From the NCBI RefSeq assembly GCF_024223415.1, contig NZ_CP100500.1: 64,000 nt of DNA; one strand, 5' to 3'. Made by a program: the position numbers and the translations under genes. The notes under the pieces are model-generated. The model was not told where the DNA came from and did not search any database. It was given only the letters and a program-made list of their open reading frames with translations. The stretch is from Escherichia coli (GTDB lineage: Bacteria; Pseudomonadota; Gammaproteobacteria; Enterobacterales; Enterobacteriaceae). Below are positions 4,840 through 44,012 of this stretch, one piece after another (position 1 is the stretch's first letter; every line of letters begins with the position of its first letter).

Positions 4840-6062
4840 ATGTCGCAACCCTTACTGAAAGTAACCGACCTGGCAAAAAGCTTTTCCGGCGTATGGGCGC
4901 TGAGCAGCGCCCAGCTCACCGTCGGCACGGGTGAAATTCACGCTTTGCTGGGCGAAAACGGCGCTGGGAAATCCACGCTGTTGAAGGCACTCGCGGGCGC
5001 ACAGCCACAAACGCGCGGGGAGATCTGGTTCAATGGCGAAACGCTGCCGGTGGACGACTCCCCGGTAGAACGGCAGAACAAGGGCATTATCACCATCTAT
5101 CAGGAATTCAACCTGCTGCCCAATATGACCGTTGCGGAAAACATGTTTCTCGGACGCGAACCGCGTAAACGTAACCTGATCGTCGACGAAAAAGCGGTCA
5201 ATCAGGAAGCGCAGGTGATTCTCGATTATCTGCAGCTGAATGTCGCACCCACCACGCCAGTCGCCCGTCTGAGCGTGGCCCAGCAGCAGATGGTGGAGAT
5301 TGCCCGGGCGCTGACCCTCAATGCCAGGCTGATCATCATGGATGAACCCTCCGCCGCCCTGAGTGACAGCGAGGTGGAAAGCCTGCACCGCGTGGTGCGG
5401 GAGCTTAAAAACCGCGGCGTGAGCATTATTTACGTTACTCACCGTCTGCATGAAGTTTTCCAGCTTTGCGATCGTTTCACCGTTTTCCAGGATGGCCGTT
5501 TCACCGGCACCGGCGCAGTGACGGAGACGAACGTAGAGCAGTTGATCCGCCTGATGGTAGGGCGTGATGTGGCCTTTAACCGCCGCCCTGCCAGCGAAAC
5601 CCACCATGAAGACAAACCTGTCCGTTTGTCGGTGAAGGGGTTAAGCCGGGAAAAACCGCCGCTGGATCCACACGGCATCGCCCTGCATGACATCAGTTTT
5701 CACGTCCATGCAGGGGAAGTTCTGGGTATCGCTGGGCTGGTGGGGGCTGGTCGTACTGAGGTAGCGCGCTGCCTGTTTGGCGCCGACGCCTTTACCACCG
5801 GCAGCTTTGAGCTGGACGGCGTGCCGTACCAGCCGCGTGACCCACTTTATGCGCTGGAGCAAGGGCTGGCGCTGGTGCCGGAAGATCGCAAAAAAGAGGG
5901 GGCGGTGCTGGGTCTGTCGATTCGCGACAACCTGTCGCTCTCCTGCCTCTCCTCGCTGTTGCAGTGGCGCTGGTTTGTGAATACCCGCAAAGAGGACGAC
6001 CTGATTGAGTCCTACCGCCAGGCGCTGCAGATCAAAATGGTCAACAGCACGCAAGAGGTGCG
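4840..6062 (+). pseudogene. sugar ABC transporter ATP-binding protein, 5' part, interrupted by prophage insertion
   Basis: Walker A GENGAGKST, first signature and second Walker A present; homology stops after ...STQEVR at the prophage end; the 3' part resumes at 43682. Confidence 0.85.
6057..6062. repeat. target-site duplication, left copy (GGTGCG; exact length 5 or 6 bp)
   Basis: Both prophage junctions share the octamer AGGTGCGT; duplicated bases flank the element. Confidence 0.6.
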
Positions 6063-6140
6063 TGATGCGCCGCGCGATAAATGCGCTCTATCTTGTGCGA
6101 TAAATGACAACCAATCGGCGTTTCATTATTTGAAAAAGAA
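6063..6140. repeat. prophage end on the gin side (attR-like) with transposase-binding-type motifs
   Basis: TGATGCGCCGCGCGATAAATG...GCGATAAATG plus CGTTTCATTATTTGAAAAAG resembling the Mu end consensus; mirrored at the other end. Confidence 0.6.
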
Positions 6141-6700
6141 TTACATTTCAGGTTGCGTTATGACTGTCCCAGCGGGGTGATAGCGGTAGATCGTTGACAG
6201 TCCAATATCATAGATAATTACCAGCCGCTTTCTGTCATACCCTTTCTGGAGCAATCTTGCGATCTGCTCATGCTGCTCCTTCGTCAGTTTCGGGCGACGC
6301 CCTCCAACTCTCCCTTGTGCTCGCGCAGCAGTCAGTCCTGCCAGCGTGCGCTCAACTATCAGTTCACGTTCCATTTCTGCCAGTGCACCCATCATATGAA
6401 AAAAAGAACCTTCCCATCGGAGTGCTGGTATCGATTAAATCCGTCAGACTGCGAAAATTGACACCTTTTGCGCGTAGCTCTTCTGTGAGCGAAATGAGGT
6501 GTTTCATTCTTCTACCCAACCGTTACAGCTTCCAGACCACCAATGTATCCCCTCTTTTAAGGCACCTTAAAGCGCGTTTCAGGCCTGGTCGTTGCGACTT
6601 AGTTCCGCTCATTTGTCCTCAAAAATTTGTTCACATCCTGCGCACATTAATACATTGCGTTTTGGTCATTTGTTGACACACGTATGTAGCCAATCAGCAT
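6141..6700 (-). pseudogene. gin: Gin/Pin-family serine DNA invertase, inactivated
   Basis: Translation gives MLIGYIRVSTNDQN, CAGCEQIFEDK, RPGLKRAL..GDTLVVWKL, HLISL..GRFFF and the C-terminal HTH in different frames; in-frame TAA, a 7-A homopolymer frameshift (6399-6405) and further indels. Confidence 0.8.
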
Positions 6701-32643: not shown

Positions 32644-33408
32644 ATGAAAATGCAGACATTACCCATCGTTCCATGGATTGGTGGCAAACGTCGCCTGGCA
32701 AAACACATCCTGCCGCTGTTTCCGGCGCATGAATGTTACGTGGAGCCGTTCTGCGGCGCAGCAGCGCTCTATTTTCTTAAGACACCTGGTAAGCTCGAAG
32801 TCATTAACGATATCAATGGTGAACTGGTAAATCTGTATCGGGTGGTAAAACATCATCTGGAAGAATTTGTCCGCCAGTTCAAATGGGCGCTGGTCAGCCG
32901 GCAGATCTACAAATGGCTGCAGATCACCCCGACAGAAACACTGACGGATATCCAGCGTGCAGCACGGTTCTACTACCTCCAGAAGCAGGCGTTTGGCGGC
33001 AAGGTGGCAGAGCACAGCTTCGGCACCTCCACCACATCCCCGCCACGCTTCAACCTGCTGCGTATCGAGGAAGAACTGTCAGCGGCACACCTGCGGCTTT
33101 CCAGAACGGTGATAGAACACATGGACTGGCAACAGTGCATTGAGCGCTATGACCGTCCGCACACGCTGTTCTACTGTGACCCGCCGTATCTGGGTACAGA
33201 AGGCTATGGTGTGGATTTTCCTGAAGGGAACTACTCGCGGCTGGCAGAGCTGGCCCGGTGCATCAGAGGAAAGATGATAATTTCGGTGAACGACATCCCG
33301 CAGATGCGCGAGGTGTTCACTGGACTGAACATACAGACAGTGAACATCAACTACAGTCTGGCAGGCAAATCAACTCCACGCCGTGAGCTGGTGATCTGCA
33401 ATTTCTAA
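32644..33408 (+). CDS. DNA N6-adenine methyltransferase (Dam-like)
   Basis: Motifs FCGAAALYF and DPPY; 254 aa; no partner nuclease gene adjacent. Confidence 0.85.
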   Translation: MKMQTLPIVPWIGGKRRLAKHILPLFPAHECYVEPFCGAAALYFLKTPGKLEVINDINGELVNLYRVVKHHLEEFVRQFKWALVSRQIYKWLQITPTETLTDIQRAARFYYLQKQAFGGKVAEHSFGTSTTSPPRFNLLRIEEELSAAHLRLSRTVIEHMDWQQCIERYDRPHTLFYCDPPYLGTEGYGVDFPEGNYSRLAELARCIRGKMIISVNDIPQMREVFTGLNIQTVNINYSLAGKSTPRRELVICNF

Positions 33409-33526: not shown

Positions 33527-33865
33527 TCAGCCTGCGAGTTTGCCTGGTTTGGGTTGAATGAAGACTTTGCCGACCTCAAGAATTGCCCTCCGTTGTTCGG
33601 GGCTCATCTCGTCGAATGCATCCATTAACTCTTTCTTTTCTTGTGACATATAAGGTGCAACAACAGGCTGACTCCGCACCCCAGTAACTACATACAAAAC
33701 ATCTACACCGATTTCTGATAGTGCAGATAACTGCACTGCAGTAGGAGAAGTGCGATCTTTTTCCCAATCAATAAAAGTTCTCTTTGCCACACCGATAGCA
33801 TCAGCCAACCCTTGCTGTGTAAGAGATAGACGCTCTCTTTCTTCTTTAATACGTAACCCGATCAT
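33527..33865 (-). CDS. XRE-family HTH regulator, prophage repressor candidate (c-like)
   Basis: Cro/CI-type HTH (LTQQGLADAIGVAKRTFIDWEKDR); divergent from the early operon; start set at ATG 33865 so it does not overlap the Ner-like gene. Confidence 0.65.
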   Translation of the reverse strand: MIGLRIKEERERLSLTQQGLADAIGVAKRTFIDWEKDRTSPTAVQLSALSEIGVDVLYVVTGVRSQPVVAPYMSQEKKELMDAFDEMSPEQRRAILEVGKVFIQPKPGKLAG

Positions 33866-33965
33866 GTGAGTTTTTCTGCACTCTTTAAGTTGACTGGTGA
33901 GATAATCTGCACCATAATCTATCACACATAAGGCAAACATCATTGCATCAACAAAGGAGACAACG
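33866..33965. promoter_or_regulatory. divergent early control region between repressor and Ner-like gene
   Basis: 100-bp AT-rich spacer with repeated CTGCAC motifs; geometry matches the Mu c/ner switch. Confidence 0.4.
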
Positions 33966-34154
33966 ATGACTGCAGAACAAGTCAAAGCTCTCTTCCGCCA
34001 GCGCGGGATCACTTTCACCCGCTGGGCAGAAGAAAACGGCTACAACCGCAATGAGGTATACCGCGTTCTCAATGGGCAGAGCAAAGCACGTTACGGTAAA
34101 TCCCATGAAATCGCCGTGAAACTGGGGCTGAAATCAACAGCTCAGGCAGCCTGA
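33966..34154 (+). CDS. Ner-like small DNA-binding protein
   Basis: 62 aa; residue pattern parallels Mu Ner; AAAGGAG RBS. Confidence 0.55.
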   Translation: MTAEQVKALFRQRGITFTRWAEENGYNRNEVYRVLNGQSKARYGKSHEIAVKLGLKSTAQAA

Positions 34155-41761: not shown

Positions 41762-42203
41762 ACAACGTCTTATCCAGCTTATCCATATTGCCCGTAATGA
41801 ACTGGGTATGGATGAAGACACCTACCGCCAGATGTTACAGGGGCTGACCGGTAAAGCCTCAACCAAAGGAATGGATACCACACAACTAAACTGCGTGCTG
41901 GAATCCATGAAAAGGAAAGGCTTTCGCGTTAAGCCTGCCGGAAAAGCCAGCTCCGGTTTACCGCTGGATAACCATCCGCAGTCCAGGAAAATCCGTGCGC
42001 TATGGCTTGAAATGGCTGCTGCCGGCATTGTTCGTGACCGTTCAGAAAATGCATTAGCGCGGTGGATCAAGCGGGAAACGGGCATCAGCGCCCTGCGCTG
42101 GCTCAATACTGAACAGGCAAGCAGTGTTATTGAGAAACTGAAGAAGTGGCAGCACAGAGCTGCGGGAGTAAAACATGAGCGACCTGAATCAGTTTCGAAG
42201 TAA
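41751..42203 (+). CDS. gemA: GemA-like regulatory protein (Mu gp16 family)
   Basis: AGGAG RBS before ATG 41751; GemA-family N-terminal sequence; directly upstream of mor. Confidence 0.7.
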   Translation: MMTKQRLIQLIHIARNELGMDEDTYRQMLQGLTGKASTKGMDTTQLNCVLESMKRKGFRVKPAGKASSGLPLDNHPQSRKIRALWLEMAAAGIVRDRSENALARWIKRETGISALRWLNTEQASSVIEKLKKWQHRAAGVKHERPESVSK

Positions 42204-42573
42204 AGGGCCGGAACTCCTGGTGGAGCTGGCACAGCATACCTCTGAGACCGTTCGCGAGATTATTGATATTGAGCCCGCAATTGCCGACCAGATTGGTCAG
42301 GCCGTCGCGAACCGAATGATGCAGGTCTGGGGCGGGCAAAACGTTTATTTCCCGATGGGCATGGTATGGAAGGTCAGTCAGCGCGACCGGGAAATCTTCA
42401 GGGAGTTTAACGGACGCAACCACCACGAACTGGCCCGCAAGTTTGGTGTTTCGCTTCAGTGGGTCTACAGCGTGGTTAAGCGGGTCAGAAAAGAAGAACT
42501 GGATCGGATGCAGGGCAGGTTGTTTGATGAAGATCTGCCAGAGGAGACGAAAGACGTTAACAAATCCAGATAA
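42175..42573 (+). CDS. mor: Mor-family transcriptional activator
   Basis: 132 aa; C-terminal ..FNGRNHHELARKFGVSLQWVYSVVKR.. parallels Mu Mor (..FNGRNVSELTTRYGVTFNTVYKAIRR..). Confidence 0.75.
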   Translation: MSDLNQFRSKGPELLVELAQHTSETVREIIDIEPAIADQIGQAVANRMMQVWGGQNVYFPMGMVWKVSQRDREIFREFNGRNHHELARKFGVSLQWVYSVVKRVRKEELDRMQGRLFDEDLPEETKDVNKSR

Positions 42574-42618
42574 TTCCTGCTTGTTAAAGTCCTTTCAAAA
42601 ATCTCCTTATTGTATAAA

Positions 42619-42650
42619 AGCACGGTAGACCCCGTACCGTGCTTTTTTTA
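42619..42650 (+). terminator. rho-independent terminator
   Basis: AGCACGGTA-loop-TACCGTGCT stem followed by 7 T. Confidence 0.6.
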
Positions 42651-42687
42651 TGCTCTCTCTTTAGTATTCAGGATGCAGGGAGAAAAT

Positions 42688-43320
42688 ATGTTTGACGTTT
42701 CGTTGTTAAATCTGCCATGGGCAACACTGGTGACCCTGACCAGTGGCTATATTGGGTATTTTATTGCGAATGTGGGACTGAAGGATCACCACAAGCCCAT
42801 TGAGGTGACTTTTTCTTCGCTGATTTTTGGCCTGACAGCAATGATGGCTTACCAGGCTGTTATGTGGGCAGGTCTGAATGCCTGGCTGGCAACACCACCA
42901 GCACTTCTGTGTGCCGTTACATGCGGTGCGTGGTGGCGCAGGTACGGTCGCAAATGGATGTACAGATTACTGTGGAATAATGATATTTCATGGTCTGACG
43001 ATACCAGCTCAGCATGGCAGGCAATGTTTGATCAAACAGGCTTCAGCGTTACCGAGGTCAGAGTGATTCTTCGCGATGGTTCCGGTATGATGTCACGGCT
43101 GCCAGGGAACTTTGAACAGTGGCCTAACGGTCCGTTTACCCTGGGGAATAAAGGCGATATGGTTCTTTACGTCACGCACAGCAGCCCTTCAGGCAGTAAC
43201 GAATGGGAAGAGTATAAAGGCGTGGTTGATAAGTACTGGGGAGCTCTGGCAACCTATATTCCAGCAGATCAGATTGCCAGAGTGGAGATCAGGCGCGTTC
43301 GTGCAACGAACGATGAATGA
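42688..43320 (+). CDS. membrane protein of unknown function (moron candidate)
   Basis: 210 aa; 2-3 N-terminal TM helices plus soluble C-terminal domain; downstream of the mor terminator, about 360 bp from the prophage end. Confidence 0.6.
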   Translation: MFDVSLLNLPWATLVTLTSGYIGYFIANVGLKDHHKPIEVTFSSLIFGLTAMMAYQAVMWAGLNAWLATPPALLCAVTCGAWWRRYGRKWMYRLLWNNDISWSDDTSSAWQAMFDQTGFSVTEVRVILRDGSGMMSRLPGNFEQWPNGPFTLGNKGDMVLYVTHSSPSGSNEWEEYKGVVDKYWGALATYIPADQIARVEIRRVRATNDE

Positions 43321-43599
43321 TGTTTATTTTTTCCCTGGGGCAGGGGCTGCCGGCATAGTGGTTTTATTGGCAGAGGAAGACGATTCTCCTTTTCTACCGG
43401 AATCGCGCTCGAACGTCACGATGTGCTTGCTTTTGGGATTTTCTGAGTAATCCAGGCTATCATGCTTATTGTTTTGAGTAGTCATTGGAATCATCCTTTT
43501 TGTTGCGGGTCATGTTTCAGCAAACTCGATTCTAAGTTGCCAGGAAGGATGATTTCAATGCCCGACTTATCTATCGTATAGCGGAAAAGAATTTCAGTT

Positions 43600-43681
43600 C
43601 TGTTCACCAGAACCCATGTTAACCCACTCCAATTCGTTATTTATCTCACGGATCCCCCTTCATTTATCTCATGTCTGATCA
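43600..43681. repeat. prophage end distal to gin, with transposase-binding-type motifs
   Basis: Reverse complement reads TGATCAGACATGAGATAAATG...GTGAGATAAATA, mirroring the other end (TGAT, 9 nt, GATAAATG, 15 nt, GATAAAT). Confidence 0.55.
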
Positions 43682-43687
43682 GGTGCG
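43682..43687. repeat. target-site duplication, right copy (GGTGCG)
   Basis: Matches 6057-6062. Confidence 0.6.
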
Positions 43688-44012
43688 TAAGCTCTCTGGC
43701 GGCAACCAGCAGAAAGTTATCCTCGCGCGCTGCATGGCGCTCAATCCACGGGTGTTGATTGTCGATGAGCCGACGCGTGGCATCGACGTTGGAACCAAAT
43801 CGGAAGTGCACCAGGTGTTGTTTGATATGGCGAAAAAGGGCGTGGCGGTGATCGTGATCTCCTCCGATCTGCTTGAAGTGATGGCGGTGTCTGACCGGAT
43901 CATCACCCTTAGTGAAGGCCGGTTAACTGGCGAGATCCACGGTGACGACGCTAACGAAGAACGGCTGATGACGATGATGGCTATCAACCACAACGCCCTG
44001 AACGCGGCATAA
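43682..44012 (+). pseudogene. sugar ABC transporter ATP-binding protein, 3' part
   Basis: Begins in frame with the second ABC signature (LSGGNQQKV) and Walker B (LIVDEPT); continues the ORF broken at 6062. Confidence 0.85.

Follow-up and report, generated by a model that had tools for sequence, protein, structure and literature searches.

We analysed a 64,000-nucleotide stretch of an Escherichia coli genome (NCBI RefSeq assembly GCF_024223415.1, contig NZ_CP100500.1; hereafter the window), in which a transposable prophage carries two convergent genes between mor, the last core gene of its early operon, and its right end. The region from ~42535 to ~43610 is almost certainly an optional, phage-borne cargo cassette made up of these two genes, which code for an inner-membrane protein of 210 amino acids (aa) and for a partner of 53 aa, and it is under selection. 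The function that we favour for it, with a probability of roughly 40%, is an anti-phage one exerted at the level of the membrane, i.e., exclusion or abortive infection, in which the small protein and/or an antisense transcript would act as regulator. An earlier note on the window had taken the larger gene for a moron candidate, and the description of the cassette as moron-like accessory cargo is borne out both by its patchy presence among E. coli prophages and by its quite different positions in prophages of other types.

The accessory status of the cassette emerged from a survey of 5,426 complete E. coli genomes with a 1.6-kb query, to which 766 genomes gave any match. The match covered the whole query, and thus the cassette, in 113 genomes (about 2% of the complete E. 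coli genomes), whereas about 532 genomes showed a cassette-free junction, in which mor is followed by the prophage end within ~165 bp. By the earlier note, a moron would be contradicted if all related phages had the gene as part of their core; what was found instead are these ~532 E. coli prophages, in which the end repeats come straight after mor. As the cassette-free junctions outnumber the cassette carriers, we regard the cassette as accessory cargo. The membrane gene is absent from ~80% of otherwise near-identical E. coli prophages, and the flanking early genes are 91-98% identical. The two kinds of prophage differ in the last ~40 nt of mor. In the cassette-free ones the match ends at query positions 431-434, which places the left recombination junction at ~42531-42534, and the swapped segment begins in these final ~40 nt and extends to ~70 bp before the prophage end, where the transposase-binding repeats regain homology. 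Divergent alleles of the cassette also occur in E. coli, namely a 75%-identical allele with an extra 80-aa gene in 3 genomes and an 87%-identical one (nucleotide identity) in a few more.

The membrane-protein gene (42688-43320, plus strand, ATG to stop; RefSeq WP_000460689.1, hypothetical protein) lies at the right end of the prophage exactly where the earlier note had put it, and RefSeq annotates the same coding sequence. Its ATG at 42688 matches the start kept in homologs and is preceded, at a distance of 5 nt, by the ribosome binding site (RBS) AGGGAG (42677-42682, plus strand), with which a purine-rich GGAG-type motif is aligned in relatives. AlphaFold2, run on a 33-sequence alignment, returned a model with a mean predicted local distance difference test (pLDDT) score of 84, in which helices at residues 11-27, 37-60 and 65-97 are followed by a beta-rich domain (~98-210). 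The earlier note had proposed two to three N-terminal transmembrane (TM) helices and a soluble domain; membrane helices and a beta domain are indeed predicted, and the helices number three, not two. The sum of lysines and arginines, averaged over 182 alignment rows, is 0.3-0.7 at the N-terminus, ~2 in loop 1, 0.03-0.3 in loop 2 and 4.4-5.5 after helix 3, and this distribution indicates an N-out/C-in topology with the beta domain in the cytoplasm. As modelled, the protein thus consists of three TM helices and a cytoplasmic Sm-like beta barrel. Among the positions conserved in homologs are a cytoplasmic KDHHK loop and the motifs SWSDD, GD..YVTH and TYIP. The gene is under purifying selection, with ratios of non-synonymous to synonymous substitution rates (dN/dS) of 0.09-0.17 in the three close pairs where they were computable.

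The family to which this protein belongs comprises 522 clusters at 50% identity among 1.84 billion representatives, all of them ~200-215 aa long and conserved over their full length. The protein encoded in the window has no Pfam match and is not recognised as DUF6338 (PF19865) even at E<=10. DUF6338 is weakly matched by 10 of 33, 6 of 46 and 9 of 103 aligned homologs at E<=1e-3, and no other family recurs. Judged from these matches, the protein is likely a peripheral relative of DUF6338, in a sister group rather than a clear member. A profile search of PDB sequences with the membrane protein returned nothing, and a literature search for DUF6338, PF19865 and WP_000460689 found no functional paper. 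A Foldseek search of the AlphaFold database with the model retrieved the protein's own uncharacterised family, three entries named DUF421 and one entry carrying the UniProt name SMODS-associating 2TM beta-strand-rich effector (TM-score 0.81, 26% identity). Domain fusions in longer homologs were also considered and rejected, the extensions being low-complexity sequence or miscalled starts.

The partner gene lies on the minus strand (43324-43485; RefSeq WP_001571575.1; phrog_15726, function unknown), and 3 nt separate its stop codon from that of the membrane gene. The earlier note had listed a possible 53-aa minus-strand open reading frame (ORF) with an AAGGA RBS; gene and RBS are real, and the coordinates shift from 43330-43493 to 43324-43485, the conserved start being the ATG at 43485 and not the ATG at 43494. 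The ~360 bp that follow the membrane gene were accordingly misjudged as noncoding: these 361 bp hold the 53-aa gene, its promoter and RBS, and ~120 bp of end repeats. The encoded protein is hydrophilic, with a short aromatic motif (DYSENPK) and a tail that is basic and rich in proline (PAAPAPGKK), and structure prediction indicates that it is probably disordered. Four independent close pairs gave dN/dS values of 0.13-0.17 for this gene, and among the six frames only that of the small ORF is stop-free in all 22 lineages tabulated. Purifying selection, the sole open frame, and the conserved promoter and RBS described below together argue that the 53-aa ORF is a real gene, and the comparison of distant loci indicates that it is a conserved partner of the membrane gene.

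This comparison drew on loci with relatives of the membrane protein from 100,044 species represented by one genome each (12 loci), from viral contigs (38 loci) and from individual look-ups. Nearly all loci with downstream DNA have an ORF of 41-62 aa on the opposite strand, 0-45 nt from the membrane-gene stop or slightly overlapping it. At least 24 lineages have a convergent small ORF whose product has a proline-rich, basic tail, and the linkage spans E. coli to Bradyrhizobium, Devosia, Afipia and Pseudochrobactrum, with membrane proteins that are only 31-45% identical. The small proteins of Enterobacterales share D(Y/F)SE(N)PK, most of them with a proline-rich, often basic tail (PAAPAPGKK, PPAPLGKK), and those of Alphaproteobacteria (loci L010, L020-L026, L060, L062, L063 and L072) have one to three copies of (N/S)Y-x-P-x-T and a tail PPPPKK or PSPKKK. 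We take the composition of the Alphaproteobacterial partners to be like that of proline-rich peptides binding chaperones or ribosomes, presumably no more than a resemblance. The homolog search with the small protein returned close relatives only, none of them named. SH3- and LSm-type small barrels often bind short linear motifs, and by analogy the proline-rich basic tail is a plausible ligand of the barrel.

The small gene has a sigma-70-type promoter (43529-43558, minus strand) that points inward from the prophage end, with TTGAAA and TAGAAT separated by 18 nt and 10 of 12 positions agreeing with the consensus. In nine lineages whose surrounding sequence diverges, the -10 TAGAATC is invariant and the -35 region ATTG.A nearly so. 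Its RBS AAGGA (43494-43498, minus strand) lies 8 nt ahead of the ATG, and AAGGAT is kept in eight of the nine lineages, the ninth (L053) having GAGGGC. This is the only recognisable conserved promoter of the cassette, and it drives the gene on the strand opposite to the membrane gene; the separate transcription that the earlier note had attributed to the 210-aa gene, for which no promoter was found, is therefore unproven. Between the convergent stop codons there is no terminator or significant structure (z = -0.65 and -1.8), so the two transcripts must overlap unless Rho intervenes, and no known RNA family was detected in 42400-43800.

A 16-nt inverted repeat on the minus strand, whose arms are 94% complementary, connects the promoter with the translation start of the small gene: one arm (43560-43545) covers the -35 and the other (43498-43483) covers the RBS and the AUG. 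In the alignment of the nine lineages, 88% of the cells hold standard pairs, 5 pairs are changed on both sides, and none of 500 shuffles reached the observed values; when the partner was slid by 1-3 columns as a control, pairing fell to 27-51%. This covariation should be read with the caveat that the structure was derived from one of the nine tested sequences. We infer that transcripts from the gene's own promoter start beyond the first arm and would leave the RBS free, whereas transcripts reading in from the host would carry both arms and would have the RBS hidden. A fold-back directed at read-in transcripts makes sense for an element landing in transcribed genes.

Upstream of the cassette, mor (42175-42573, plus strand; phrog_532 late transcriptional activator, E 2e-45; RefSeq Mor family protein) is followed by a rho-independent terminator (42616-42650, plus strand), with a 12-pair stem at 42616-42646 and a T run to ~42650. 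The earlier note had called it strong and placed it at 42619-42650; apart from this small refinement of its left boundary its strength is confirmed by a folding energy of -18.8 kcal/mol (z = -5.7), which none of 200 shuffles matched. On the minus strand the same hairpin reaches -16.4 kcal/mol (z = -4.7) and is followed by UUUU only, which suggests that the terminator is weakly bidirectional in this window. In seven of the ten related Mu-like lineages compared, a hairpin with a T run is found in the same place, 30-45 bp ahead of the membrane gene, and L013, L051 and L053 have no such hairpin with a T run upstream of the gene. The stem sequences vary among lineages (GCACGGTA/TACCGTGC, ACACAGTGG/CCACTGTGT, GCGCAATGG/CTGTTGCGC), and since they differ while the hairpin persists, the structure rather than the sequence is what is kept. 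The early operon of cassette-free prophages closes with another hairpin. Some lineages have an extra small gene between mor and the membrane gene, which codes for 80 aa (L065-L067, 4663-4905) or 95 aa (L013, 5690-5977) and has no family match; such genes suggest that the site between mor and the prophage end gathers further cargo. A gene reported after mor in Klebsiella phage KP12 was also considered as alternative cargo and was rejected, as it is a terminase fragment in a chimeric record.

The cassette was found in Enterobacterales and Alphaproteobacteria, in Mu-like, P2-like and HK97-like prophages. Wherever the context was sufficient, the locus proved to be phage or mobile DNA, and the hosts include gut Enterobacterales, insect symbionts and soil Alphaproteobacteria. 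The Mu-like prophages of Enterobacterales have it behind mor without exception, including those whose mor has an identity of only 32-41%. In an HK97-like prophage it lies between a head-tail connector-type gene (a gene not itself scanned) and a head-closure gene, and other positions are beside tape-measure and tail-fibre genes, after head-decoration or MuF-like genes, beside a DNA invertase, near terminase and near a replication module. In one P2-like phage the cassette lies between the portal gene Q and the replication gene A, and the Q-A locus of P2 is a described hotspot of anti-phage systems (PMC9122126). At one locus of Rhizobiales bacterium AFS000508 (L022, 4348-6721; UBJO01000046.1), the cassette is located directly downstream of, and co-oriented with, the Thoeris genes ThsB/ThsA (TIR-like ThsB, E 1e-71; Macro-domain ThsA, 2e-132), with which it makes up a small cluster of defence genes.

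The anti-phage reading is favoured because of location, architecture and precedent, the last being the end-proximal exclusion genes of phage Fc02 discussed below. Lysogenic conversion or superinfection exclusion, which the earlier note had described as frequent for end-proximal genes of transposable phages, is likewise suggested by the P2 defence hotspot, the Thoeris adjacency and the prophage-only distribution. In common with superinfection-exclusion proteins, the product of the larger gene is a prophage-encoded inner-membrane protein, with three apolar helices and a positive-inside charge bias. In the lysogen, the small gene would be transcribed from its own conserved promoter, and the fold-back would shield its translation against host read-in transcripts. 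Since there is no terminator between the genes, its transcript would run antisense into the membrane gene, which itself would be expressed at a low level because it lies behind a terminator and is without a recognisable promoter. The membrane protein would be the effector, either blocking incoming DNA or acting as an abortive-infection permeabiliser, possibly as a ring-shaped oligomer, and the small protein and/or the antisense RNA would restrain or tune it. A more elaborate version, which we consider unlikely in its full form, is a two-component immune module in which a constitutive disordered mini-protein and/or the antisense transcript stops the Sm-like-domain membrane protein from forming a ring-shaped pore. 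An infecting phage that halts host transcription, or that binds or degrades the mini-protein, would then allow the pore to form and the infection would be aborted; such a module would be the protein-ligand counterpart of the inhibitory-nucleotide logic of Panoptes.

Several observations weigh against an anti-phage function. The argument from neighbourhood is one of guilt by location, a weak one that draws on a single Thoeris neighbour and a single P2-hotspot case, and the neighbours scanned at five other loci gave no PADLOC match. Both cassette proteins are without an informative Pfam or NCBIfam match, they match 0 families of PADLOC-DB v2 at E<=1, and their PHROGs are of unknown function. No sigma-70-like promoter scoring >=9/12 is found between the terminator and the ATG of the membrane gene, and this spacer is not conserved among relatives; expression of the gene may rely on transcripts running through from the early operon. 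The membrane gene points the same way as the early operon in this prophage and as late operons in other phages, and this orientation, together with the lack of a promoter, suggests that it may be expressed in the lytic cycle rather than in the lysogen. Three lineages have an intact membrane gene and no small ORF, namely one Pantoea-type Mu-like phage, one P2-like phage and one metagenomic phage (L018/L050/L052, L055 and L069), which argues against an obligatory antitoxin. AlphaFold2 predictions of 21 fused cognate pairs, made with a shallow alignment and an artificial linker, left the small protein unplaced (pLDDT ~30, tail 46). Finally, membership of the membrane protein in the Cap15/OptE (S-2TM-beta) group was rejected, as neither the query nor any of 179 distinct homologs has an S_2TMBeta match, the helices number three rather than two, and no Cap15 chain is among the PDB fold matches.

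As a kind, the membrane-protein moron is well known. HK97 gp15, reportedly described by Cumby et al. in 2012, is said to be a phage-moron inner-membrane superinfection-exclusion protein. The cassette resembles a moron of this type in being optional cargo between core genes of a temperate phage, flanked by transcription signals, coding for an inner-membrane protein and patchy in syntenic phages. It differs in that there is no sequence relationship, the terminator is upstream and not downstream, no membrane-gene promoter was found, and a small convergent gene is conserved. A second precedent is the sieB-esc system of P22 and lambda with its antisense RNA sas, said to have been reported by Ranade and Poteete in 1993, where a membrane exclusion or abortive function of a prophage is likewise under a partner product and an opposing RNA, the antisense overlap being a supposition in our case. 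Reportedly, Esc is encoded in frame within sieB, and sas, a small RNA without coding function, originates inside that gene, whereas the opposing transcript of the cassette codes for a conserved protein of 41-62 aa and starts outside the membrane gene. For the fold-back, the closest parallel is the inhibition of IS10 transposase translation, reportedly described by Davis, Simons and Kleckner in 1985. In both cases an inverted repeat pairs with the RBS and start codon, the upstream arm lies at or before the gene's own promoter so that only outside transcripts would be silenced, and the element inserts at random into transcribed host genes. In contrast to IS10, the fold-back of the cassette would shield a small cargo gene at a phage end and not a transposase, a function deduced from covariation only.

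The transposable Pseudomonas phage Fc02 has the exclusion genes olg1 and gene 10 near its end (PMC9936078). It is likewise a Mu-type phage with end-proximal accessory genes on opposite strands, and in the Fc02 lysogen one small product of these genes is made that keeps other phages out; the Fc02 genes differ from ours in lying at the repressor end, in overlapping each other and in being unrelated in sequence. Cap15 of CBASS and OptE of Panoptes, known members of the class after which the AlphaFold-database entry matched at TM-score 0.81 is named, disrupt the membrane in anti-phage defence (PMC12657218). Like them, the membrane protein has N-terminal helices and a small cytoplasmic beta-rich domain within a total of ~200 aa. 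OptE is kept inactive by a constitutively made ligand (PMC12657218), and the candidate regulator of the cassette is a small protein, not a nucleotide. No CD-NTase or mCpol nucleotide synthase gene was found in the annotated neighbourhoods, most viral-contig loci having been screened only for Mu-type early genes, and we keep Cap15/OptE as a functional analogy only. Compared with known morons, the cassette has three new features: a mini-protein that is encoded convergently and conserved, a site for cargo from mor to the right end, and a fold-back against read-in.

Among the alternatives to the anti-phage reading, a helper function in the lytic cycle is tentative and leans towards the unlikely. 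The terminator would then let part of the early transcription pass into the membrane gene, which in other phages would be expressed from late operons, and the membrane protein would act in the phage's own development, for example to block superinfection during lytic growth, to time lysis or to modify the membrane, the small gene damping it in the lysogen. The missing promoter and the orientation shared with the early operon fit this, as does the co-orientation with flanking structural genes in HK97-like and other prophages. The three lineages without an upstream hairpin and T run, in one of which (L013) the 95-aa gene fills that space, and a holin-family match in one of 103 distant homologs (E 8e-4) also speak for it. 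But the gene, absent from ~80% of otherwise near-identical E. coli prophages, is dispensable for growth, read-through is limited by the strong, conserved terminator just ahead of it, and the positions in other phages are typical moron insertion sites with no conserved functional order.

That the cassette serves lysogenic conversion unrelated to phages is, in our assessment, unlikely. The membrane protein would in this case alter host physiology (ion or solute flux, envelope stress, colonisation), with the small protein as regulator, as could be expected of accessory prophage cargo whose product is located in the inner membrane; three TM helices and an Sm-like cytoplasmic domain would also be loosely like small channel proteins. 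However, the protein has no similarity to any transporter or channel family, and a phage or mobile context in hosts of very different lifestyles fits a phage-centred function better than a niche-specific trait.

An addiction module of toxin-antitoxin type, in which a labile disordered protein or an antisense RNA counteracts a stable membrane toxin and the prophage is thereby stabilised, is improbable. The convergent genes, without a terminator between them, imply overlapping transcripts, the small partner is predicted to be disordered and has a strong conserved promoter, and one distant homolog matched the membrane toxin family Cpta_toxin (E 4e-4). The architecture, however, is not that of any known toxin-antitoxin system: the genes are convergent and do not form an operon, the small protein is without a fold or a DNA-binding domain, the membrane protein has 210 aa rather than being a short hydrophobic peptide, and the pairing is not obligatory, given the three lineages that have an intact membrane gene and no small ORF. 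Besides, Mu-type transposable prophages are not known to excise, so there is little to stabilise. That the segment between mor and the end repeats is decaying DNA or a functionless leftover, for which the absence of any known domain speaks and nothing else, is hardly credible in view of purifying selection on both ORFs, the full-length conservation across the 522 clusters, and the conservation of promoter, RBS, terminator and fold-back.

If the cassette is indeed an exclusion or abortive-infection module, it would be a compact system of ~1 kb overlooked by current defence catalogues, and it would provide the first function for a DUF6338-type membrane protein and for a class of tiny proline-rich proteins that, if annotated, are listed as unnamed hypotheticals. 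Whatever the function, the site from mor to the right end is a cargo hotspot of BcepMu-type prophages, and the fold-back may illustrate how a phage that inserts at random can protect one of its cargo genes against transcription reading in from the host. Cassette-plus and cassette-minus prophages form natural near-isogenic pairs, which makes the question directly testable.

The prophage that carries the cassette (6063-43681) accounts for 37.6 kb of the window. On the basis of its early genes, terminal repeats, target duplication and varied insertion sites, all of which are present, we assign it to the BcepMu-type transposable prophages, the closest named phage being Escherichia phage PhiKM of the genus Bcepmuvirus. 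Its rightward early operon codes for transposase (phrog_310), MuB, Gam, GemA and Mor. The prophage interrupts the frame of a two-domain host sugar ABC-transporter ATPase, whose N-terminal part (4840-6062) stops at 6062 and whose remainder (43682-44012) resumes past 43681 with the LSGGNQQK signature, as read at both junctions; this sugar ABC transporter is thus probably inactivated in the strain. A target-site duplication GGTGCG of 6 bp was read at the junctions, at 6057-6062 just ahead of the left end at 6063, and at 43682-43687. Both prophage ends have a 10-nt motif that occurs twice at a spacing of 23 bp, in inverted orientation between the ends. The right end (attR, 43560-43681, no strand assigned) has the transposase-binding-type repeats ATTTATCTCA at 43639 and 43662 and finishes with the base at 43681 (...TGATCA), and its TGAGATA and CGTGAGATAA blocks are invariant across the nine lineages. 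The E. coli genome matches stop at 43681-43685, whatever host gene adjoins. The gemA-mor segment is present in most of the 766 matching E. coli genomes, with a different neighbouring host gene in almost every strain, as expected of random transposition.

The end repeats also contain, ahead of the small-gene promoter, a weak terminator-like hairpin (43596-43614, minus strand) with 7 pairs and a T-rich tail, which is not conserved in relatives. Similarity confined to the final ~145 bp of the prophage (43528-43672; 89.7% identity) was found in about 149 E. coli records, many of which are large plasmids. This segment, which corresponds to the small-gene promoter and the end repeats, is unannotated in them and lies beside a degraded IS3 transposase and a LysR-type gene, for example at positions 4001-4144 of L008 (plasmid NZ_CP126943.1) and L009 (chromosome NZ_CP080172.1). 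To judge from their sequence and setting, these copies look like a fossil Mu-like right end spread by an island or plasmid module.

Two further features of the prophage lie away from the cassette. Inside the left end and adjoining tail-fibre genes, 6170-6510 (minus strand) is a truncated, frameshifted remnant of a DNA invertase, whose C-terminal 77 aa match phrog_125 (E 2e-29), whose upstream part is in another frame with stops, and whose catalytic N-terminus is absent. With the invertase broken, any tail-fibre inversion switch of the prophage would be fixed in one state. In the stretch that separates the late arm from the early arm, a DNA methyltransferase gene (32644-33408, plus strand; phrog_56, E 4e-100) adjoins a repressor-type regulator (33527-34018, minus strand) and is a candidate for a further accessory or anti-restriction gene.

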